Source of the DNA: Candidatus Aenigmatarchaeota archaeon | GTDB lineage: Archaea > Aenigmatarchaeota > Aenigmatarchaeia > CG10238-14 > SCSR01 | Reading direction: 5' to 3' | Assembly: GCA_018304615.1 (NCBI GenBank) | Contig: JAGVVV010000003.1 | Coordinates: 1 to 61,470 of the forward strand | DNA length: 61,470 nucleotides | Shown here: in pieces, positions 7,803 to 28,465 of the stretch | Position numbering within the stretch: position 1 is the first letter of the stretch | How the letters are laid out: each line of letters starts with the position of its first letter | The notes under the pieces: generated by a model | Database searches by the model: none | What the model was told of the DNA's origin: nothing | Seen by the model: the letters and a program-made list of their open reading frames with translations, nothing else | Position numbers and translations under genes: made by a program

Positions 7803-8054
7803 ATGAAGAAGGAGATGATTGCCGTTAGAGGGGTTGATGAGGAAGTACTAAGGAAGTTCAAGGCGAAGACTTCTGAGGAGAGGATGAAAATGGGTCAAGC
7901 ACTTACAGAAGCGATGAAAATATGGGTAAAAGAGAAGGAAAAACGTATCGATATTGATCCTAGAAATATTCTCAAGATCAAGCCTTTCAAAGTTGGAAAG
8001 AAAGTTAGATGGAGCGAAGAGGTAGATGAGATTCTTTACGGGTGGAAAAAATGA
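7803..8054 (+). CDS. antitoxin, ribbon-helix-helix-like
   Basis: IAVRGVDEEVLRKFKA...MGQALTEAM RHH pattern, C-terminal SEEVDEILYG, ATGA overlap with the PIN gene. Confidence 0.75.
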   Translation: MKKEMIAVRGVDEEVLRKFKAKTSEERMKMGQALTEAMKIWVKEKEKRIDIDPRNILKIKPFKVGKKVRWSEEVDEILYGWKK

Positions 8055-8455
8055 TTATATTGGATTCGAGTTTTCTGATTGCATTTAAGATTTTAGACGA
8101 TGTGCATCACCAAAAGGCTGTCAAATTGATGGAGAAAATAGTTTCAGGAAGATACGGAAAATCTATTCTTACAGATTATATTTTCGATGAGACTGTGACA
8201 GGAATCTTGGCTCGCAGTAAAAAACTGAAATTGGCTATTGAATTCGGGGAGGAGATTTTGCAATCTTTGCCATTGGAGAAAATTACAGACAAACTGTTCT
8301 CGGATTCATGGGAAATTTTCAAGAAGCAGTCCATCGCGGATTTGAGTTTTACTGACGCCATAATAATTTCTGTGATGCGTGAAAACGAGATTAAGAATAT
8401 AGCCACATTCGATGGCGATTTTAAGAAAATCAATGGAATAAATGTAATCAGTTAA
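8051..8455 (+). CDS. vapC: PIN-domain VapC toxin
   Basis: IILDSSFLIA, IFDETVT, LSFTDA, IATFDGDF acidic PIN motifs. Confidence 0.9.
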   Translation: MIILDSSFLIAFKILDDVHHQKAVKLMEKIVSGRYGKSILTDYIFDETVTGILARSKKLKLAIEFGEEILQSLPLEKITDKLFSDSWEIFKKQSIADLSFTDAIIISVMRENEIKNIATFDGDFKKINGINVIS

Positions 8456-8907: not shown

Positions 8908-8981
8908 GACCCTCTACTCTAAAGAATAGACTCAACAAATAAATATACCCACCAATACATAGATATTAAATTGGTGACTCC

Positions 8982-10730
8982 ATGAAAAAATCTAGGAGGA
9001 TGAATCTAGAAGTTTTAATCCCTATAATAATTTTTCTCGTAGCTTTCTTCTCCAGGTTCGTCTACATAGGTAGATATTTCGGGCAGGACGAGGTCTACTA
9101 TGTCGGTTATACAAAAGATTTGATTACAGGAAGGTCGTTCACGTCAGTCTTTCCTCCATTCTTCTACTACTTCCTCTCGCCGTTCGTCGCAGCTTTCGGG
9201 GACAATTCGATAATGATCCACACGCTGATGACATTCCTCGGAGCGATTAATGTTTTAGTGGTCTATTACTTTGGGAAGAAATTCCTTAACCACACTGCCG
9301 GAATAATAGCCGCTATACTTCTCATCTTCAACACTACCCATTTCTTCTTCTCGGATTTTGCGATGCTTGATCTTCCTGTCACATTATTCTCGACAGTCGG
9401 TTTCTACTTCTTCTGGTCCTGGTACAAGGAGAGGAAAGATAGGGACTTGATTCTCGGAAGTTTGTTCACTATTTTCTCTGTGATGACTAAATATGGTTTC
9501 TTTGTAGCACTGGCCATGTTCGGATTCCTTTTCTTGTATGAAAGAAAGATTTTCAAGGACAAGAGATTCCTGCTCTTTACATTGCTTCCGTTGTTTGTCT
9601 TCGCTGCGTTCCTAGGGCTTACAAAATATTCTTCAACTTCGCAACTGATGTCACTTTTGTTCGAGGTCTCCAAGTACGCATTCCTCGGCTCTTTAGGGAT
9701 TGTCGTGGTCATACTAGCCTTCTATATCAAACTCACTCCAGACAGGAAAGCTGTGCTGATGACATTATTGCCTATGATTGTCTTCGTTGCCTGGATGTTT
9801 TTCTACATCTCCAGCCAGGGCTGGCTGTGGAACTGGTGGTCTTCCTATGTCACTGGCCAGCTCAGCATCAATCTTCCATTTTATATCTATCTTGAATCAA
9901 TCTACTCGGAGTACCTTCTCCCGATACTCACTTTGTTCATTCTGTTTGCAGTCGTGTTTCTCGAGGCAGAGAGAAGGAAAATCCACACAAAGGCAAGCTA
10001 CGTCTTTCTAGCCATATTCATTTTAGTCTATCTGTTTGTCTCTCCTCTCTATCTCCAACCGACCACAAAAGCTGTGATAGGATTCTTCTCAGTCCTGATA
10101 CTTGGAATGTACTACTTCCAGCAGAAGGACGTCTACAAGTATCTGATCTTCATCATACTCGGAGTTTTCCTTTTCTATTCTCCTCTGGGCGTGAAGTTTC
10201 CAAGATATGTCCTCCCTGCCCTCCCTGCACTTTATCTCCTTGTCGGACAGATGTTCTCTGACATCAAAAAATTCAAGTGGTTCTTCATAATCGGGATTGT
10301 TGTGTTGGTCTGGTTCGTAGTTTCGAATTTTGAGGACACTGTGAACAAGCTGATCGTCGACAAGGAGATCAATCGGGTGAAATTCCTCACGCAGGACTAC
10401 ATGAACAAGAACAGCGAGCAGTGCAGCCAAGTCTTTTCATCGACCTGGTATGGATTCTATTATGTGAGGACGAGAATTTCAGATTTGCCGAAAAACATTG
10501 ACGACCTCAAATCGACAATAAAGAATAGATGCAACTGCCCGCCTAAGTATGTGGTTTCAGAAGGTCTCCTATCTTCGAATATCAATTCTGTTCTCACGCT
10601 TGAGAAAGGATTCTCTGGCGCTGCCATCCAGTACAAGTATCTGGAAACTGGGAAGACTGATGTTACTTCTATTGCTCCTGTACAAGTCTACAGAATCAAC
10701 GATGATTTTATTAGTTCAGTTTGCAAATAA
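8982..10730 (+). CDS. GT-C membrane glycosyltransferase (GT39/PMT-ArnT-like)
   Basis: GQDEVYY acidic first loop, FPPFFYY, multiple TM helices, FPRYVLPALP motif, C-terminal extracellular domain. Confidence 0.8.
   Translation: MKKSRRMNLEVLIPIIIFLVAFFSRFVYIGRYFGQDEVYYVGYTKDLITGRSFTSVFPPFFYYFLSPFVAAFGDNSIMIHTLMTFLGAINVLVVYYFGKKFLNHTAGIIAAILLIFNTTHFFFSDFAMLDLPVTLFSTVGFYFFWSWYKERKDRDLILGSLFTIFSVMTKYGFFVALAMFGFLFLYERKIFKDKRFLLFTLLPLFVFAAFLGLTKYSSTSQLMSLLFEVSKYAFLGSLGIVVVILAFYIKLTPDRKAVLMTLLPMIVFVAWMFFYISSQGWLWNWWSSYVTGQLSINLPFYIYLESIYSEYLLPILTLFILFAVVFLEAERRKIHTKASYVFLAIFILVYLFVSPLYLQPTTKAVIGFFSVLILGMYYFQQKDVYKYLIFIILGVFLFYSPLGVKFPRYVLPALPALYLLVGQMFSDIKKFKWFFIIGIVVLVWFVVSNFEDTVNKLIVDKEINRVKFLTQDYMNKNSEQCSQVFSSTWYGFYYVRTRISDLPKNIDDLKSTIKNRCNCPPKYVVSEGLLSSNINSVLTLEKGFSGAAIQYKYLETGKTDVTSIAPVQVYRINDDFISSVCK
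10602..10645 (+). repeat. 44-bp exact direct repeat, copy 1
   Basis: GAGAAAGGATTCTCTGGCGCTGCCATCCAGTACAAGTATCTGGA, identical at 11496-11539. Confidence 0.95.
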
Positions 10731-10732
10731 AA

Positions 10733-10760
10733 CTTTAAATACTTTTCATATTAGTATGAA
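10733..10760 (+). promoter_or_regulatory. TATA box and palindromic operator of the AbrB/PIN pair
   Basis: CTTTAAATACTT 10733-10744; TTCATA-TTAG-TATGAA 10745-10760 overlapping the ATG. Confidence 0.55.
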
Positions 10761-11028
10761 TAGTATGATAAATAAGAAAATAGAGGATGTAGTTAAGGTT
10801 TCTACTAGAGGGCAGATAGTCATACCAAAAGAAATTAGGAAGAGGATGGGTGTTTCTGCTGGAGAAAGGCTTTTGGTTATGAGCGAGGATAGAGGAATTT
10901 TGATTAAAAAGCTAGAAAGTCTTTCAATGGAAGAGATAGGAGAAAGGATAGAAGCTACTGCGAAGAAGAAAGGCATAGATGTAGATAAGCTGATAGATGA
11001 GGCCACTAAATGGGCAAGGTCAAAGTAG
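10756..11028 (+). CDS. AbrB/MazE/SpoVT family antitoxin
   Basis: VSTRGQIVIPKEIRKRMGVSAGERL; true start at 10756, not the 10549 of the ORF track. Confidence 0.88.
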   Translation: MNSMINKKIEDVVKVSTRGQIVIPKEIRKRMGVSAGERLLVMSEDRGILIKKLESLSMEEIGERIEATAKKKGIDVDKLIDEATKWARSK

Positions 11029-11435
11029 TTTTTGATACCAATGTTTGGATATCAATTTTTACTAAAAAAACTCTAAGTAAAGAGTTCTCCGAAATCCTAG
11101 AGAAAGAACTTGTATCCGTTTATATCAGTGAAGAAATTCTTAAAGAAATTACCAAAGTCCTTTTTTATCCCAAAATCGAAGAACTATTAAACCTCTCAGG
11201 TGTGAATGAAAGGGACATTCTCAGGAATATCACTTCAATTTCCAATTTCGTCAAGCCTAAATTCAAATTGAAAGTCATAAAGGAAGATCCGGAAGATAAT
11301 AAAATTCTTGATTGTGCTATGCAAGTCAAAGTCGATTTTATTATAAGTGGAGATAGGCATTTACTAAAGCTTAAAAAGTTCAGGAATACTAAAATTGTAA
11401 CACCGAGAGAATTTTTGGATATAATTGTTGAATGA
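11010..11435 (+). CDS. vapC: PIN-domain toxin (putative TA toxin family)
   Basis: VVFDTNVWIS, DPEDNKILDCA, IISGDRHLL, IVTPREFL. Confidence 0.9.
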   Translation: MGKVKVVFDTNVWISIFTKKTLSKEFSEILEKELVSVYISEEILKEITKVLFYPKIEELLNLSGVNERDILRNITSISNFVKPKFKLKVIKEDPEDNKILDCAMQVKVDFIISGDRHLLKLKKFRNTKIVTPREFLDIIVE

Positions 11436-11486
11436 TTTATTTTTAAGTACTTTTCTGGATTTTACTTCCACTGATTTTCTTCGGAG

Positions 11487-11624
11487 TTAACTTTGGAGAA
11501 AGGATTCTCTGGCGCTGCCATCCAGTACAAGTATCTGGAGACTGGAAAAACTGACATGACTACTATAAATTCTGTTCAAGTTTACAGAATTGATGATTCG
11601 CTTGTCAGTTCTATCTGCAAGTGA
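11487..11624 (+). pseudogene. displaced duplicate of the glycosyltransferase 3' end
   Basis: Encodes LTLEKGFSGAAIQYKYLETGKTDMTTINSVQVYRIDDSLVSSICK*, 36/45 aa identical to the GT C-terminus; in-frame stop upstream at 11472-11474. Confidence 0.9.
11496..11539 (+). repeat. 44-bp exact direct repeat, copy 2
   Basis: Identical to 10602-10645; period 894 bp. Confidence 0.95.
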
Positions 11625-11625
11625 A

Positions 11626-13179
11626 TCACGGATATGGGAAAATCAGAGTTCTGTTTTCAATTGTCTGTGTGTGTTTTTTCCCAGAATTTATGAACGCCAG
11701 CCATTCGAACAGCTTTTCCTTCAATTCATCGGCTACTTGCGGTTCTTTGCCAATCAGATTATTTTGTTCGTATGGATCTGTTTTCAGATTGTAAAGCTCA
11801 AACTCAGGAATCGGGATGGTTTCGTTTATCACCCTTCCCCACATGGAAATGTTCTCAGAGACGTTTCTGCTCTGCCTGTAAATCAATTTCCATTCGTTCG
11901 TCCTGACAGCAAAGTCTTCATCCGGAGCAAGAGAATATCTTTCCTCCCACAGGGGCCTCTCCACGAAGACATACTTGTTGAAATCCTGAGGAGGATAATT
12001 CCCAAGAAGAGGCTTGATAGATTTTCCCTGGGCCTGGGTAGGAATCTCTATGTTCAGGAAGTCCAAGATTGTCGGGAGGATGTCTATCCCTTGGACTTGG
12101 GCATCTATGACTTTTCCGCCCGGGATTCCCGGGTTCTTGATTATCAGCGGTGAATGAATCTCAGTGTCGTATATGTCATAATGCCAGAAGTACCCATGCT
12201 CCCCCAGACCTTCGCCGTGTTCCGATTCTATTATGATGATAGTATTGTTTTCCAGTCCAAGTTCTTTCAGTTTATTGAAAAGCTTGCCTAGATATTGATC
12301 AACATAAAATATCCCGGCATCGTATCTGGCGTTTATGTATGCGACGTCCTGATCATCCAGATTAAACCCAGGATTCCTTGAGTCGTACATCAGAGTGTCT
12401 TCGAAGAAGGCGTAAGAGACGCTTATGTTCGAGACGTTCATTGTCGTTATGCTTTCGTTGGCTGTTATGTTGTAGAAAGTCCTGTTGTAGATCCTTGAAA
12501 ATAGCTCATAGTCCAAATCCAGACTTATGTTCTTCAGAGGGCCGTCGTAGTCCTTCGGGTCGAACTTGGACTTTATTTCCGGAGGGACATTTTTCGCGAA
12601 CGGCTCGTGGATTGTTCCCAATGCAAGATAGAGGAAGAAGCTGCTGTTGGTGTTGTTTTCAAGCCAACCAGAGACGTTTTCGAACTCTGGCAGAGTCCTG
12701 ATGCGTCTTTTGTTGAAGGAGTCGAAGCCGTAATGGAAGGCCGGGAACTGCCTATCTGCAGATATCTCCGGGGAAGTGGAGTAGGCTGCTGTCTTGTAAT
12801 TATAAATTTTCAGTATCTGGGCTATCGTGAGATAACTTTTGATGGTGTCATTCGGAAATTCAAGCTCATGAGCGAATGAGAGGGTGTTGTGGAAGCTCGG
12901 ATAAAGGGATGTCTGGAGTGAGGCTTCGCTGATTGGTGTTAGATAAGAATTGGAGATGTAATTCTTGAAGACTATTCCCTCTCGAGCCAGGTTATCTATG
13001 TTCGGGGATGTATCCCTAGAATATCCATATATCCCAAGGTGATCTGCGCGTAAACTATCCAGAGAAATCAGTACGACATTACACCTGTAGCAAGAGGACG
13101 TTTGATTATTTTGAGAAGGCAAGTCAATCGTGATTACTAAAATGATCAAGAAAAAGGAGAGCGCAATTTCTTCCTTCAT
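11626..13179 (-). CDS. secreted sulfatase-like hydrolase/transferase (alkaline phosphatase superfamily)
   Basis: NVVLISLDSLRADHL, SEHGEGLGEHG, HSPLIIK, ELYNLKTDPYEQNNL; nucleophile motif is LTPISEAS instead of CxPxR. Confidence 0.85.
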   Translation of the reverse strand: MKEEIALSFFLIILVITIDLPSQNNQTSSCYRCNVVLISLDSLRADHLGIYGYSRDTSPNIDNLAREGIVFKNYISNSYLTPISEASLQTSLYPSFHNTLSFAHELEFPNDTIKSYLTIAQILKIYNYKTAAYSTSPEISADRQFPAFHYGFDSFNKRRIRTLPEFENVSGWLENNTNSSFFLYLALGTIHEPFAKNVPPEIKSKFDPKDYDGPLKNISLDLDYELFSRIYNRTFYNITANESITTMNVSNISVSYAFFEDTLMYDSRNPGFNLDDQDVAYINARYDAGIFYVDQYLGKLFNKLKELGLENNTIIIIESEHGEGLGEHGYFWHYDIYDTEIHSPLIIKNPGIPGGKVIDAQVQGIDILPTILDFLNIEIPTQAQGKSIKPLLGNYPPQDFNKYVFVERPLWEERYSLAPDEDFAVRTNEWKLIYRQSRNVSENISMWGRVINETIPIPEFELYNLKTDPYEQNNLIGKEPQVADELKEKLFEWLAFINSGKKHTQTIENRTLIFPYP

Positions 13180-13233
13180 AGTTTAATATTTTATATCATC
13201 AAATAAAAACGTTGAAATAAAACCAAGTTCATA

Positions 13234-14175
13234 ATGATTTTAATGCCCATCAACACTATCACTGTAGAGCTTACAAACAAGTGTGATTTGGATTGCAAGT
13301 TCTGTGTTCCTGAAAGAGAGGAAAGCAGTCTGAAGTTCTCAACGTTCAAACACATTGTGAAAGAGAGCCAGAAGGTCGATCCGCCGATAAAGAATTTCGA
13401 GTTCGGATATTTCGGAAGCCCCTTGATGTATAAGAGATTTGAAGATGTTTTGAAGCTACTTCAAAAAAACAAACTGTCTGCCAATGTGGTTACTAACGGG
13501 TTTAATCTGAAATGGAATCTGGGTTTCATAGGCGACAAACTGATGAAAAATATCAGCGTTTCTGTATATCTAGAGAGTCTTGACGAGGCTAAATGCGACC
13601 AATTAACTGGAGTAAAGAAATATTACAAAAAAACCATCGAAGCCATGGAGTACATGAACGATAGAAGAATTCCCTACAACATATTCATGAGGATCACTTC
13701 GCTGAATTATCAGGAGATAGAGCAGATGCTGGATATTATGAAGTTCTACTACGGCCAAGGATTATTCCCAATAGAGATGTTTCCTTATACTGACGAGAGT
13801 CTGCTTCTGACGGACGAGATGAAGAAAGAAGCGATACAAAAGATAGTCGAACTACAGAATTATGGGGAAAGTATTCATAGGGTAATACAATTCTCAGAAG
13901 TTGAAGGTAATTGCAGCTATCAGAGGATGGAGAGGCTGTTTGTGAATTCTTCTGGGAATGTAGGATTTTGTCATTTTCTCACGCCATTAGAAAAAACGGG
14001 ACTTTTCAATGCAGGGAAGATGAAAATCTCCAAGATCATAGAACTGAACAACAAAGTGAGGAAGAAATACCTTACAAAAAAACCGAAGGAGTTGAAAATC
14101 TGGAAGAGGCCTAGGCAAACTGTCTCCCCGTGTAGTTACTGTTTGCACAATTTCGGGTTGAAAAAGAACTGGTGA
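13234..14175 (+). CDS. radical SAM protein with SPASM/twitch-like C-terminus
   Basis: VELTNKCDLDCKFC (CxxxCxxC), VVTNG, C-terminal NCSY...FVNSSGNVGFCHF...CSYC. Confidence 0.88.
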   Translation: MILMPINTITVELTNKCDLDCKFCVPEREESSLKFSTFKHIVKESQKVDPPIKNFEFGYFGSPLMYKRFEDVLKLLQKNKLSANVVTNGFNLKWNLGFIGDKLMKNISVSVYLESLDEAKCDQLTGVKKYYKKTIEAMEYMNDRRIPYNIFMRITSLNYQEIEQMLDIMKFYYGQGLFPIEMFPYTDESLLLTDEMKKEAIQKIVELQNYGESIHRVIQFSEVEGNCSYQRMERLFVNSSGNVGFCHFLTPLEKTGLFNAGKMKISKIIELNNKVRKKYLTKKPKELKIWKRPRQTVSPCSYCLHNFGLKKNW

Positions 14176-24319: not shown

Positions 24320-25351
24320 ATGGTCGATTTAATACTTATTGCTATTATTGTCTTCGGATTTATTAATTCCTATACCGATTTGAAATATTCCAAAATAAAA
24401 AACGTTTTAATAATTCTAATGATTCTTTCATCAGCAGTCCTTAACTTCTATCTGAATTCATTCACATACGAAACGATAATCAACTCTTCAATATCCCTTG
24501 CTCTAGGATTCTTTCTTTTTTATCTGAACTACTGGTCTGCCGGAGACGCCAAACTATTTTTCGCATTCTCCCTTCTTGTTCCAATCTCAGTCTACCACTT
24601 TGGCAAAGTAAGCTACTTCCCATCCATCAGCATCTTGATCAACGCCTTCGTCCCAGTTACAATTTACTATTTGCTCAAATCGGTTACAACCCTGAAAATA
24701 AAAAACCTTGTCAATATCCTAAAAGATCAATTGAAACCAAAAACACTACTCGCAACAGTTCTATTCCTTTTCGGTTTTCCTTTCATATTCAATTTTTTCA
24801 ATCTGAAACTCGATGTAATCTCCTCAGTGTTCATCTTGCTCCTTCTTTTCCAGGTTCTTAAGAAATTTCCCAAAAAATATTCCCTTGTCTTCTTCGTTTC
24901 ACTTTCCATCCTCAATCTACTCTTCTATCCGGATAAAATTCTAGTTCCTCCTTTCTTTTACAATTTCATCCTTTCAGTAATTATCTATCAGATATTCAAC
25001 TTAGCCCTAAGTTTCCTATTTACCCTATCTTTTTCAAACCAGTTCTTAATTGACAAATTGAAACCTGGGATGATCCTAGGCGAGCCATTATTCGAACTTG
25101 GAAATAAATTCAGCAAAAAATCAAAAAAAGGAGAAAAGATAACGAAACTCTCGCAAGAAGACATCTCGTTGCTTAACAAATTGTACAAATCTGGGAAACT
25201 GGATTTTAAAACTCTCCTGATTGAGAGAACAGTTCCATTCGCACCTTTCATTTTCATAGGAGTTCTTCTCACATACTTAGTCCAAGGAAACCTGTTTTCT
25301 TACGTCTACCTCATCTATCTGAAACCTTATTTTGCGACTTTACTAAGTTGA
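24320..25351 (+). CDS. class III signal (prepilin) peptidase, A24/FlaK-PibD-like
   Basis: YTDLK first Asp, WSAGDAKL GxGD-type motif, C-terminal VPFAPFIFIG. Confidence 0.85.
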   Translation: MVDLILIAIIVFGFINSYTDLKYSKIKNVLIILMILSSAVLNFYLNSFTYETIINSSISLALGFFLFYLNYWSAGDAKLFFAFSLLVPISVYHFGKVSYFPSISILINAFVPVTIYYLLKSVTTLKIKNLVNILKDQLKPKTLLATVLFLFGFPFIFNFFNLKLDVISSVFILLLLFQVLKKFPKKYSLVFFVSLSILNLLFYPDKILVPPFFYNFILSVIIYQIFNLALSFLFTLSFSNQFLIDKLKPGMILGEPLFELGNKFSKKSKKGEKITKLSQEDISLLNKLYKSGKLDFKTLLIERTVPFAPFIFIGVLLTYLVQGNLFSYVYLIYLKPYFATLLS

Positions 25352-25753: not shown

Positions 25754-28465
25754 ATGAAAAAACTGATAATAGGAATAATTTTTACTTTCATTTTCATTTC
25801 CATAATTTCTTCTGCTTCCTTTGCTCAGTGTGCTGCTTGCGCTAACCAAGTCTGCATAAACGGATGCGGATTATCCAAATGCTGTACAATCTCCTGTACA
25901 GGAACCTGTTCCCAGACTTGCCCGAGCGGATATACTGACCAATGCAGCATCAACGGAGTCTGGGGTTCCTCACCAAACCAATTCACATGCAATCCATCAG
26001 GAACTTACAACCAGTGCAGTTCCACAGGAGGATCATTCCCAACAACTGCTAATGCAACTTACAACGGAGTCTTATGTAGCTCTTTCAGCGGAACTTCCTA
26101 CTACAACAATTATATTAATCCCAACATTTGCATCTCAACTTACTGCACCGGGACCGCTACCCCTTGTTCCTCATTTACTAGTCAAACAGCCTGCCAAGCC
26201 CAGAGCGTTTGTAGTTGGTCCAGTTCTTGCAGCGGTACTTATTCTTGCAGTCAATTCAGTTCTTCGACCTCTTGCACTGCTTATGGATGCACATGGAATA
26301 TAGGTAGGCCGAGGTTAGAAGAAGACCCCTATTGCAGTGGAACTAGTAAATCATGCAGCGGCTTCTCCCAATCCCAATGCACACCAATCGGATGCACATG
26401 GACTTCACAATGCCAAGGAACAGCAACTTCTTGTAACAGCTTCAGCACCCAGACTCCCTGCCAGAATCAGGTGGGATGCAAATGGATTGGTTGCTCAGCA
26501 GATTCTGCATGCAACGGAACTGCTCCCAATTCCCAGATATCCGGTGGTTACTGCGACTCGAACTGCAAATTCAGCATATCAATAGCTTTATCTGCAAACC
26601 CGTCTTCTGTTTCCAATAACCAGCCATCAACAATAACAGCTTCCACCTCTGACATCAAATCTGGAGTTTTAATTTCCCTCACGACAAATCTCGGTTCAGT
26701 CACTCCGACTAGTTGCACTACTAATTCCTCAGGCCAGTGTTCAGTTAGTTTCAGCTCTCCAACTACAGGAACAGCAACAATAACTGGTTCTGCTCCTTCT
26801 CCATATACTTCCGGAACAACTCAAGTGACAATAAGCAACACACTTTCTCTGTCAGCCTTTCCAAAAGTCTTAACTATAAACCGCATATCAACAATAACAG
26901 CTACAACTCCAGACACAAGATCCGGAGTTTCTATCTCATTCGCGACCAACCTCGGTGTTCTCAACCCAACAATTTGCTCAACCAATTCATCAGGTCAGTG
27001 TTCAGTCACCTTAAACTCAACAACAGCTGGAAACGCAACAGTCACAGGATCTGCCTCAGGTTATAATTCCAATTCAACATGGGTCTGGTTTACATCAAGT
27101 GGCTGCACATTCTCGCTAACAATAAATCCCGCTTCTGCCAACTATACCGATACTTCAAATTCTTGGACCATTAATGCAACAGATTCCTCCTCAGCCTCGT
27201 GTCCAACTCCAATTACATATACGATCACAAACACAACTTCAGGAACATGCGCATCCACATCAGCTCCATCTTCAATCACTGTCAACAGGGGGGGTTCGAC
27301 AACCTATCCAGTCTCAGTGACAAGATCAACTTCATCTTGTACTCTCACAACCACTCACAACGATTTGAACCTCAATACAGTTGCCACTGGGAGCTATAGT
27401 GTTAGTTCAATAGTGCCGGCCACATGCGGAAACGGTGTAGTCGATCCTGGAGAGAACTGCTACAACTGTCCTGCCGATTCAGGCTGCTCTTACGGCCAGC
27501 TGTGCTGTCAAGACAATTCATGCCAATCTAATTGTGTGACAAATGGCTGCAACAACAACGGAATCTGCGAACCGACTGAAACTTGCGATTGCGCAGACTG
27601 CTATTACAAGCAAGAAGGATGTTTGCCAGGCGACATGTGTAACCCACTCTCAAACAAATGCGGTTGCATCCCAACTGCTGATGGTATTTGTCCGATTGGA
27701 GATCCTGTCTGCTCCAACCAAGATCCTGACTGCACTGCCAATCTCACTTCAATATATCTCAGAGGAAATAAAGATTATCTGTACATCTATTGGAACGCCA
27801 GCGCCATGTCCCAGCCACCTTCAACTATCGGTTTGGACTGTTTCTTGAACTGCGATCCGACAAAATCCAGCTGCGGCCTGCCATCATGCTCGCAAGTAGT
27901 CTCGCCTTCATCCGGCCTTTGCCAAATCAATAAACCCAATTATCTGTACGACTCAACAAACCAGGTAGCTTGCAGGATGTACAACCAGACCTCCAACTAC
28001 ACCTTCGGATATGCACGCTCATCGTTCAAGCCTTACGACTCTTCACTCGGAGTCTCCTCGTTTGCAGTCACGGTCGGCCAGGATTTTTTCCTTCCTGTCA
28101 CGATCAGAAACACCGGATTATTTTCTGATTCCTTCACAGTCAACATCTCCCAGAACAACCTCCTGTACAATCCAAACCCCGTCCAGACGACAAACTCATC
28201 TCCAGCCGGTCCTATCCTCTTAGGGATGCCGGAGAATGAGAACACACAGTTGCTTTTCAACATGAAAGTCCTGGCATTGACAGGCTCACCGATCGGCCTG
28301 CTTGTCATTGCAAATTCTACTACAAATACAACTCATGGAAACGCTTTATTTGTCCAACTACAGTCAGGATCAGCCAGCCTGCCAGACTTTGACATCTTCG
28401 GAGTCTTCCAACTGATTCTCATCTCTACTCTGATTTTCTCCTACGTAATCCTGAGGAAGAAATAG
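25754..28465 (+). CDS. large Cys-rich cell-surface protein with tandem Ig-like domains and a C-terminal sorting signal
   Basis: Signal peptide; four CxGTx(2-3)CxxF...CxW repeats; two TNLG...CxTNSSGQCSV domains; CGNGVVDPGENC; LPDF + TM + RKK. Confidence 0.85.
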   Translation: MKKLIIGIIFTFIFISIISSASFAQCAACANQVCINGCGLSKCCTISCTGTCSQTCPSGYTDQCSINGVWGSSPNQFTCNPSGTYNQCSSTGGSFPTTANATYNGVLCSSFSGTSYYNNYINPNICISTYCTGTATPCSSFTSQTACQAQSVCSWSSSCSGTYSCSQFSSSTSCTAYGCTWNIGRPRLEEDPYCSGTSKSCSGFSQSQCTPIGCTWTSQCQGTATSCNSFSTQTPCQNQVGCKWIGCSADSACNGTAPNSQISGGYCDSNCKFSISIALSANPSSVSNNQPSTITASTSDIKSGVLISLTTNLGSVTPTSCTTNSSGQCSVSFSSPTTGTATITGSAPSPYTSGTTQVTISNTLSLSAFPKVLTINRISTITATTPDTRSGVSISFATNLGVLNPTICSTNSSGQCSVTLNSTTAGNATVTGSASGYNSNSTWVWFTSSGCTFSLTINPASANYTDTSNSWTINATDSSSASCPTPITYTITNTTSGTCASTSAPSSITVNRGGSTTYPVSVTRSTSSCTLTTTHNDLNLNTVATGSYSVSSIVPATCGNGVVDPGENCYNCPADSGCSYGQLCCQDNSCQSNCVTNGCNNNGICEPTETCDCADCYYKQEGCLPGDMCNPLSNKCGCIPTADGICPIGDPVCSNQDPDCTANLTSIYLRGNKDYLYIYWNASAMSQPPSTIGLDCFLNCDPTKSSCGLPSCSQVVSPSSGLCQINKPNYLYDSTNQVACRMYNQTSNYTFGYARSSFKPYDSSLGVSSFAVTVGQDFFLPVTIRNTGLFSDSFTVNISQNNLLYNPNPVQTTNSSPAGPILLGMPENENTQLLFNMKVLALTGSPIGLLVIANSTTNTTHGNALFVQLQSGSASLPDFDIFGVFQLILISTLIFSYVILRKK

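Follow-up and report, generated by a model that had tools for sequence, protein, structure and literature searches.

How did a toxin–antitoxin (TA) pair come to lie between two copies of the same gene end with no integrase at hand? The question arises from a locus in the window, by which we mean the whole 61,470-nucleotide stretch of contig JAGVVV010000003.1 that was analysed. A gene for a membrane glycosyltransferase (GT) of the PMT_2 / GT-C type (8982..10730, plus strand, 582 aa; PF13231 at 40.4 bits with a cut-off of 26.1, and PF02366) ends in tail copy A (10596..10730, plus strand), which comprises its last 44 codons plus the stop and is in use. Tail copy B (11490..11624, plus strand) is an orphan: 44 codons plus stop in an open frame, without a GT body upstream. 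A first-pass annotation had reported that the last 45 GT codons occur twice, 894 bp apart, with a 44-bp exact core, and this was correct to the base. Translations of 10596-10730 and 11490-11624 are identical at 36 of 45 positions with the stop counted, and the longest exact run common to both tails is 44 nt (10602-10645 = 11496-11539). A repeat search of the window gave a 130-nt direct repeat (10602-10731 / 11496-11625) with 79% identity and a spacing of 894, and self-BLAST of the whole 785-kb genome returned the tail pair with E = 1e-24. The repeat is unique in the genome, and the insert contains no mobility genes. Core copy A (10602..10645, plus strand, 44 nt) includes the 20-nt near-palindrome ATCCAGTACAAGTATCTGGA; core copy B (11496..11539, plus strand, 44 nt) forms the left edge of the copy B homology, and the sequence upstream of it contains nothing GT-like and has no nucleotide homology to the GT gene. 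As was also noted at first pass, the stop of copy B (11622-11624) is 1 nt away from the stop (11626-11628) of a sulfatase gene that is convergent with tail B (11626..13179, minus strand, 517 aa; PF00884, 142 bits).

The segment between the tails had been described as an AbrB/PIN pair, and profile matches above the cut-offs bear this out for both partners. The antitoxin (10765..11028, plus strand, 87 aa, with an alternative in-frame ATG at 10756) is of the AbrB/SpoVT type with a MazE fold (PF04014, 39.6 bits, cut-off 24.7; TIGR01439, 51.7 bits, cut-off 28.3), and the toxin (11010..11435, plus strand, 141 aa) is an RNase-type protein of the PIN_3 family (PF13470, 73.6 bits, cut-off 27; TIGR00305, 82.3 bits, cut-off 29.15). 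The two genes are co-oriented with the antitoxin first, overlap by 19 nt, and encode a toxin whose PIN acidic residues D9, E46, D96 and D115 do not vary among 10 aligned homologues. Judged from these features, the pair is an intact predicted type II TA system with an AbrB/MazE-fold antitoxin and a PIN_3 toxin. The preceding region (10731..10764, plus strand) contains a TATA-like TTTAAATA at 10734-10741, is kept in five unrelated module copies, and probably serves as the TA promoter. Together with this promoter the pair recurs as a unit of about 700 bp (10729-11438) at 71-73% nucleotide identity in unrelated contexts. Homology between copies begins at 10721-10730, where the left end of the module adjoins the GT stop codon, and stops at 11422-11438. 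By this comparison, the TA pair and its putative promoter are a discrete portable module. [quoted passage not shown] None of the module copies L034-L039 and J has a GT-like flank. The AT-rich spacer with a T-run that separates the toxin gene from tail B (11436..11489, no strand assigned) has no detectable homology to the GT gene or to the other modules (408 of 500 shuffles matched the observed score); it may contain an illegitimate junction or the junction of a circle.

The arrangement itself is not an assembly artefact. Contigs from five further ENA samples contain it at 99.95-100% identity, and these k141 contigs show 0-5 mismatches over 2-11 kb. Independent assemblies of at least five metagenome samples gave this arrangement, which excludes a chimera, and since the 44-nt repeat is shorter than k = 141, a false join by the repeat is impossible. 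The identical GT protein, the sole sequence in its 90% cluster, occurs on 10-11 contigs, and the insert is present in every one that reaches the locus. An assembly chimera of two strains was one of two findings that the first-pass annotation had named as fatal to its own reading. The other, the decay in situ of a complete tandem GT paralogue, would be in keeping with the many orphan gene fragments of this clade (the GT fragment in L040 and the radical-SAM fragments in J). We rejected this candidate as well, because nothing GT-like precedes copy B and the divergence is that of selected alleles; either history is now highly improbable.

The character of this divergence is central to the argument. 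Outside the core, tails A and B are 67% identical with pS 0.70 and pN 0.20, values that resemble those for the orthologous tails of A and relative L021 (0.64/0.17) and of A and relative J (0.60/0.19). The dN/dS outside the core is about 0.12, equal to the value between orthologous tails. Within the core, A and B differ at 0 of 44 positions, as compared with 6 of 44 in every other tail pair. On this evidence, A and B appear as two functional alleles with a sharp recombination boundary at the core, and the 44-nt identical block has the marks of a recombination signature. Allele-like divergence outside the core rules out that a duplicate decayed in place, and likewise that the target was simply duplicated. 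Furthermore, since the copies are only 79% identical and their synonymous divergence is saturated, one of them must be a foreign allele.

Saturated synonymous sites outside the core also imply a long divergence, and in J the GT gene is followed by an AbrB/PIN_3 pair of this family. Both observations would suit an insertion or duplication of long standing, whichever route produced it, after which the orphan tail persisted while recurrent gene conversion from the working tail kept the core identical. We consider this distinctly unlikely: an untranslated 130-nt relic should lose its frame and its dN/dS signal, whereas the frame of copy B is open and its dN/dS of 0.12 is that of functional orthologues. 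L021, J, G019 and G023 have one GT tail each, and no orphan GT tail was seen in L021 or J. In addition, the TA pair of J is just 48-56% identical to the one described here, which is below the 67-75% of unrelated copies.

The history that we favour, to which we give somewhat less than an even chance, is that a TA unit with a foreign GT tail was inserted by a homology-driven single crossover. We infer that the TA module arrived from a related lineage on a short, probably circular DNA that also bore the GT tail of that lineage. A single exchange with the resident GT gene would have followed within the 44-nt block identical in both alleles, and the host's homologous recombination (RadA) could have catalysed it without an integrase. 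In the product, the GT body and the first core would be followed by the incoming tail A, the TA pair, the junction spacer, the second core, the displaced resident tail B and the sulfatase gene; the GT is left intact with a new and different C-terminus of 27 residues. Loss of the segment would then be penalised by the addictive TA pair, and precise excision would have the 44-nt direct repeat as its sole obvious route. The absence of homology upstream of the core in copy B is expected if the incoming homology arm began there, and the orphan tail retains its 1-nt junction with the sulfatase gene, which also speaks for a single crossover. Against this reading, a crossover between alleles of about 86% identity cannot itself make 44 nt identical; the block was either shared beforehand or converted. 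Also, the TA pair beside the GT gene of J means that the module may predate the core identity at this locus. The first-pass annotation had proposed the same single crossover, and the two alleles, the recombination block and the portable module sustain that part of it. A donor with tail A and the TA pair at high identity was not found in any collection searched. Comparison with relatives, suggested at first pass as the place to look for an empty allele, and with contigs revealed neither this allele nor an excised form.

The question of which tail came in hinges on polarity. All polarised nonsynonymous changes fall on orphan tail B (9:0). In the variable part, tail A matches the tails of relatives at 13-16 of 22 positions and tail B at only 8-9 of 22, so that B is the outlier of five tails. 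Because the changes are on B, with a GT body and a tail A that look like those of the rest of the clade, the incomer could be the TA pair with tail A or tail B with the sulfatase gene, and tail B as the foreign piece fits the polarity at least equally well. Trees can contribute little here, since the GT gene shows a mosaic pattern when compared with L021 and J.

The genes to the right of tail B provide further information. Next to the sulfatase gene is a conserved neighbour for a radical SAM (SPASM-like) protein (13243..14175, plus strand; PF04055, with no NCBIfam model above its cut-off) with 77% identity to its counterparts in L021 and L025. A further in-frame ATG lies upstream of it, at 13234, but lacks conservation: in L021 the corresponding ATG runs into a stop. 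The closest homologue of the sulfatase (55%), in L024/L025, is likewise divergent from an orthologous radical-SAM gene, and the adjacency of a minus-strand sulfatase gene to a plus-strand radical-SAM gene is common to J. This shared adjacency fits an older order of GT, sulfatase and radical-SAM genes, and to that extent agrees with the tail-to-tail arrangement of GT and sulfatase genes that the first-pass annotation took as original; no relative or contig examined has these two genes directly tail to tail.

These neighbours bear on an event in the reverse direction, which we judge unlikely. According to this alternative, the GT gene with tail A, the TA pair and the radical-SAM gene were resident, and a fragment from a more distant lineage, extending from a GT tail through the sulfatase gene, was imported beside the TA pair. 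Its right side would have joined by homology (in the radical-SAM gene or beyond) and its left side illegitimately, the core would have been converted later, and TA addiction may have selected against simple replacement. The polarity described above, with a typical GT body and tail A and an outlying tail B, is what such an import would leave. It is also consistent with the TA pair of J, which is fused directly to a radical-SAM head, and with sulfatase genes being the cargo in this genome's second case of tail duplication. Moreover, the HTH and GT genes are nearer L021, whereas the radical-SAM gene lies at equal distance from L021 and J, a contrast that may point to a breakpoint between the GT and radical-SAM genes. 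On the other hand, an extra conversion event is needed to account for an exact core right at the left edge of copy B. The synteny of sulfatase, radical-SAM and 169-aa genes with J at ordinary divergence (55%, 77% and 56% identity) makes the sulfatase look resident, and neither possible trace of such a history, a TA-promoter remnant in L021 or a vestige of the radical-SAM leader behind the toxin gene, reaches significance.

Whether the insertion was site-specific is a separate matter. As the first-pass annotation had stated, there is no integrase near the TA locus. The one tyrosine recombinase in the genome is a XerA equivalog (NF040815, 244 bits with a cut-off of 220), no serine recombinase or resolvase was found in this genome, where 89% completeness makes the absence less than absolute, and there are no viral or mobile-element matches. 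These results disfavour site-specific integration of an integrase-less, CIME-like TA mini-element that used the 44-nt core in the GT 3' end as its att site, carried a replacement tail, and depended on a recombinase acting in trans that is absent, unsampled or lost. An exact core at the edge of homology followed by a replacement gene end does resemble phage 21 and e14 at icd. In L034, an array that is bounded by tRNA-3'-end repeats and has an integrase gene at its end includes a homologous TA module among its units. The near-palindrome in the core is also conserved in the L021 and J tails, and with one mismatch in L040. Yet within the genome the 20-nt motif occurs at the two tails only, a search of 118 genomes of the order and of viral contigs found it in none of the 117 other genomes or the contigs, and the other module copies lack GT sequence. 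We regard this explanation as very unlikely, also in light of the parallel cases.

On contig C9 of the same genome, the tail of a HerA-like gene (194 nt) is repeated at 87% identity and brackets 3.2 kb with sulfatase genes; the differences between its copies are nearly all synonymous, and the orphan copy adjoins a convergent methyltransferase gene. In J, a RHH-PIN module lies between radical-SAM 5' fragments (74-82% identity and a 49-nt exact block), and an NTase-HEPN module lies between radical-SAM 3' fragments (80%). Because these cases involve different genes and repeat lengths of 61-194 nt, homology explains them better than a fixed site. More broadly, and with the balance of probability against so general a scheme, ultra-small archaea might move TA pairs and sulfatase genes between lineages as recombinase-free, homology-armed cassettes, each with 60-200 nt of a conserved neighbour gene. 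A single crossover, carried out by the host at a short stretch of identity, would bring such a cassette in and repair the target gene with a foreign end, after which TA addiction would retain it. Repeated rounds would yield TA arrays interleaved with gene fragments as in J, surface enzymes would exchange their C-terminal domains as a side effect, and recombination between arms would regenerate the circle.

The spread of chromosomal TA modules without transposases or integrases is poorly documented, above all in DPANN archaea. This locus offers a concrete and testable route for the recombinase-free gain of selfish modules, with a C-terminal swap in a membrane GT as by-product. It also carries a warning for annotation: short orphan gene ends beside TA pairs are scars, not genes.

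Several known systems share parts of this architecture. In Campbell-type integration, circular DNA enters by a single crossover through host homologous recombination, and a second parallel is homology-facilitated illegitimate recombination. As in such events, direct repeats of a short homologous arm bracket the insert without a dedicated recombinase, and the proposed combination of one homologous exchange in an identical block with one illegitimate junction is a further likeness. What differs is that we observe a natural scar in an uncultured DPANN archaeon, that the cargo is an addiction module, and that the arm is a diverged allele of a gene 3' end, so that the target receives a different C-terminus. 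Integrative elements such as phage 21 and e14 at icd target the 3' end of a protein gene and supply a replacement end, and archaeal integrative elements with cores of about 44 bp are known, as are CIMEs. These share with our locus an identical core at both junctions, a displaced original end and an element-borne end that keeps the gene intact; here, however, no integrase lies in or near the unit, XerA is the only recombinase found in the genome, and the core does not accompany the module elsewhere. CDI and Rhs loci are said to undergo C-terminal displacement that leaves orphan modules. In both settings a conserved motif is the entry point for a new 3' end with a protective gene set, and the displaced 3' end stays downstream as an orphan, which in CDI and Rhs is able to recombine back. 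Unlike in these systems, the main gene encodes a PMT_2 glycosyltransferase instead of a polymorphic toxin with a cognate immunity gene, and the TA module that was inserted is autonomous and bears no relation to the tail that was exchanged. Finally, restriction–modification (RM) gene complexes reportedly insert with long target duplication. The locus resembles such insertions in that a small selfish complex of low GC content and without mobility genes sits at or near a gene end between long direct repeats (>30 bp) that are unique in the genome. In the survey by Furuta et al. 2010 (PMC2853133) of RM complexes inserted with long target duplication, no archaeal case survived the screen, and the repeats in Table 2 are identical at 43-47 of 46-47 positions. 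RM repeats are near-identical copies of a single target (e.g., 44/46 or 417/423), whereas the GT tails are 79% identical, the cargo is a TA pair and the host is an archaeon. Since the two copies on either side of the pair are diverged alleles that meet in an exact block, they record an exchange between lineages and not simple copying of a target. The locus is a genuine recombination scar, and the underlying event a variant of a type already known.

We first describe the locus as it reads in the window. The gene of the membrane glycosyltransferase (GT, 582 aa, 8982-10730, with PMT_2 and PMT matches) is followed by an AbrB/MazE-fold antitoxin gene (10765-11028; another possible ATG start lies at 10756) and by the gene of a PIN_3 toxin (11010-11435), which overlaps the antitoxin gene by 19 nt. 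An AT-rich spacer of 54 nt directly after the toxin gene leads to an open frame of 44 codons (11490-11624), in which the GT end occurs a second time. We refer to the GT end in use as tail A and to the orphan copy as tail B. Tail B converges with a sulfatase gene (11626-13179), the two stop codons lying 1 nt apart, and the next gene after the sulfatase codes for a radical-SAM protein (13243-14175). A repeat search returned one 130-nt direct repeat (10602-10731 and 11496-11625, 79% identity, spacing 894), in which the longest exact run between the copies is a core of 44 nt (10602-10645 = 11496-11539). The translated tails agree at 36 of 45 positions, stop counted, and self-comparison of the whole 785-kb genome scored the pair at E = 1e-24. 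Reading the locus directly, listing its ORFs and recomputing the repeat confirmed all figures on repeat and locus in the first-pass annotation. An Rfam search of 10300-11900 gave no match near gathering scores.

To characterize the two tails we aligned them codon by codon with those of the two closest relatives at this locus, L021 and J (the overlapping contigs L022 and L023), whose GT proteins are 82% identical to that of the window and 76% identical over the aligned part, respectively. Outside the core, tails A and B differ with pS 0.70 and pN 0.20 (dN/dS ~0.12). This is the same pattern as between orthologous tails (pS/pN 0.64/0.17 for A-L021, 0.60/0.19 for A-J and 0.80/0.20 for L021-J). 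Within the core, A and B show no differences and every other pair shows six; given 86% identity of the other pairs in this stretch, 0 of 44 has a probability of ~0.001. In a copy that decays in place, nonsynonymous changes should outnumber synonymous ones by about three to one, and no block of 44 nt should be spared. The allele-like dN/dS and the intact core therefore rule out a tandem GT paralogue that decayed in place, an alternative raised in the first-pass annotation, and the same divergence pattern rejects a plain target duplication. Tails A and B are thus two distinct alleles, with a recombination block joining them. Upstream of the core in copy B, 60 nt have no nucleotide similarity to GT (408 of 500 shuffles reach the score), so the exact block lies at the left edge of this copy; an in-frame S-x-L-T-L resemblance in this upstream stretch is too short to count as GT homology.

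The core also contains a 20-nt near-palindrome, ATCCAGTACAAGTATCTGGA (10626-10645 and 11520-11539), whose synonymous sites are the same in both tails of the window as well as in L021 and J; L040, the only match of a JGI scan, has a single mismatch. This conservation may merely reflect fixed codons of the conserved IQYKYLE motif. In the genome of the window the element occurs at the two tails only, and neither it nor the tail motif is present in any of 117 other genomes of the order.

A chimeric assembly of two strains, the other alternative raised at first pass, was rejected because the same arrangement recurs in independent data. The exact GT protein was found on 10-11 contigs, and the order GT, antitoxin, toxin, tail B, sulfatase is repeated in contigs of five other ENA samples with 0-5 mismatches across 2-11 kb; no listed mismatch (L017-L020) falls in the repeat. 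Contig names starting with k141_ in those samples suggest assembly at k = 141. A 44-nt repeat is too short to cause a false join at this k, and a chimera across the core should have produced a hybrid tail, not a duplication. The genome itself measures 785 kb in 22 contigs (89% complete, 39.6% GC); its named relatives are "archaeon FW215_bin.29" and a Pacearchaeota MAG, and the host is a DPANN-type archaeon.

The toxin-antitoxin (TA) pair looks functional by sequence: both proteins score above Pfam and NCBIfam cut-offs, and the acidic PIN residues D9, E46, D96 and D115 are invariant in 10 homologues. From 10721/10730 to 11422/11438 the insert aligns as one unit, at 71-73% nucleotide identity, with loci of other metagenomes. 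This unit comprises a conserved TATA-type putative promoter and both TA genes, and its left boundary falls on the GT stop codon. None of the GT, sulfatase or radical-SAM neighbours occurs at those other loci. The insert has 31-36% GC and the flanks 42-47%, and PIN_3 is patchy in the family (6 of 61 genomes). The pair is a portable module. Short direct repeats occur within other PIN_3 loci of the family at L041 and L046-L048, and are absent from L042, L044 and L045. At L034:3590-6430, a homologous AbrB/PIN_3 module stands in an array with a 111-aa ORF, a HicA pair and other small genes, the units being separated by ~50-nt repeats that are tRNA 3' ends (GGTTCAAATCCCACCTCCCGCA); the array terminates at the gene of a 396-aa tyrosine integrase. 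It looks as if mini-elements without an integrase had accumulated in tandem at a tRNA attachment site, and its boundaries indicate that the TA module can ride integrase-dependent elements elsewhere. The claim that no integrase accompanies the window's copy was borne out at the scale of the genome (89% complete), which contains a XerA equivalog as its sole tyrosine recombinase (244 bits, cut-off 220) and no serine recombinase. No viral contig or mobile element carried the tail motif or the toxin.

Comparison with related genomes bears on the arrangement before the event. Among 41 genomes (40 relatives and the window's own), orthologues of the GT region were found in G019 and G023 only (44-47% identity over aligned segments). 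These more distant genomes have a single GT tail each, with different neighbours, and the region is absent from the same-genus genome G001. In G019 the orthologous GT is split over two contigs (end of C5 and start of C6, L015 and L014) whose ends overlap by exactly 141 nt in the GT tail; strains that differ at the same site may be behind this break in the assembly graph. L021 has the order HTH, GT, radical SAM, with 31 nt separating the last two, no TA pair, no sulfatase, and a nitroreductase gene after the radical-SAM gene. An apparent remnant of the TA promoter in its GT/radical-SAM spacer, first taken as support for an older TA pair, was not significant (218 of 1000 shuffles), and L021 therefore gives no evidence of a past TA pair. 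In J, GT is followed by 660 nt with a 93-aa ORF and then by an AbrB/PIN_3 pair that is 48-56% identical to the window's, which is below unrelated copies. A radical-SAM 5' fragment is fused to this pair, and three more TA modules come after it. A decayed GT tail upstream of this pair, likewise first taken to support an older TA pair, was not significant in a shuffle test. In the window, a supposed vestige of the radical-SAM leader 3' of the toxin stop codon was only a T-rich run.

L024, from the same sample as L023, ends with a radical-SAM 3' fragment that also follows the TA island in L022. It is probably the continuation of the island of J, since L023 stops just short of that fragment. L024 and L025 (the latter from the sample of L022) hold an intact orthologous radical-SAM gene, divergent from a sulfatase gene (55%) and upstream of a homologue of the 169-aa gene (56%). 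Because the window and J share this adjacency, sulfatase(-)/radical-SAM(+) is probably the older arrangement. The original flank proposed at first pass agrees with this. No contig has GT directly tail-to-tail with the sulfatase, and no empty allele was found. The shared adjacency of the sulfatase gene and the divergent radical-SAM/SPASM-like gene (11626-14175) in such a distant relative suggests a sulfatase/maturase pair. However, the anaerobic sulfatase maturase model, with a cut-off of 349 bits, gives the radical-SAM protein a score of only 22.5. A second TA-like pair, an 83-aa ORF and a 137-aa PIN protein, lies just upstream of the HTH and GT genes (7803-8455), and at its position J has a single 104-aa ORF matching parts of both genes.

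As to how the two tails came together, the first-pass annotation had proposed a small circle with the TA pair and an arm of GT tail sequence. A single crossover between this circle and the resident GT within the identical block would leave the incoming tail A in use and the resident tail B displaced beside its old neighbour, the sulfatase. This is the simplest single event, and it accounts for the core, the edge of homology, the tight junction of tail B and sulfatase, and the parallel cases described below. The proposal is supported in part only. All polarised nonsynonymous changes (9:0) fall on tail B, with synonymous ones on both branches; at 22 variable positions tail B matches the tails of the relatives at 8-9 and tail A at 13-16, and the body of GT is a typical one for the clade. 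In J, too, a TA pair of this family comes after GT. Tail B and the sulfatase may thus be an imported piece whose core was converted later, or an old duplication may have undergone a recent conversion of its core. Nucleotide identity between the window and L021 reaches 80-90% only in the middle third of GT (8982-10730) and in the adjacent HTH gene; elsewhere in GT it is 67-80%, about the identity to J, and the radical-SAM gene is equidistant among the three. This mosaic suggests that these lineages often recombine with one another over stretches of a few hundred bp. It also puts the direction of the event beyond what trees of pieces this short can decide, and we discarded a tree-based assignment. 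Excision and addiction may follow, and the swapped C-terminus may lie at the cell surface.

Similar architectures recur. The island of J (L022:8900-12530, overlapped by L023 and L024) contains four modules (AbrB-PIN_3, RHH-PIN, HEPN-NTase and NTase-HEPN), and at least six radical-SAM gene fragments are interspersed among them. Diverged direct repeats of the radical-SAM head or tail flank two of these modules on both sides. RHH-PIN lies between two heads (8937-9068 and 9920-10052, spacing 984) that are 74-82% identical and share a 49-nt exact block; NTase-HEPN lies between two tails (61 nt, 80%). A 103-nt tandem duplication (8968-9010/9071-9113) distinguishes L022 from L023. On C9, a contig of the same genome outside the window, a HerA-like (DUF87) ATPase gene has its last 194 nt in two copies (24783-24976 and 28032-28225; 87% identity, 3 of 63 residues different). 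Between them lie 3.2 kb that contain an intact sulfatase gene and a split one, and the orphan copy adjoins a convergent methyltransferase gene; this is the second insertion of a tail-duplicating kind in this genome. Finally, L040:11025-11318 is an orphan C-terminal fragment of the GT family (97 codons, start-less but open, 74% over 94 aa) that shares 4 nt with the end of a convergent 145-aa ORF, with no GT body within 11 kb upstream.

Orphan C-terminal modules of CDI/Rhs loci are similar, but this locus contains no polymorphic toxin; integrase-borne replacement of a gene 3' end is similar too, but here there is no integrase. The mechanism would be Campbell-type or homology-facilitated recombination. 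The closest phenomenon is the "insertion with long target duplication" of restriction-modification systems, a class defined by near-identical duplicate copies (PMC2853133). In contrast, the copies at this locus are diverged alleles, and cargo and host differ as well.
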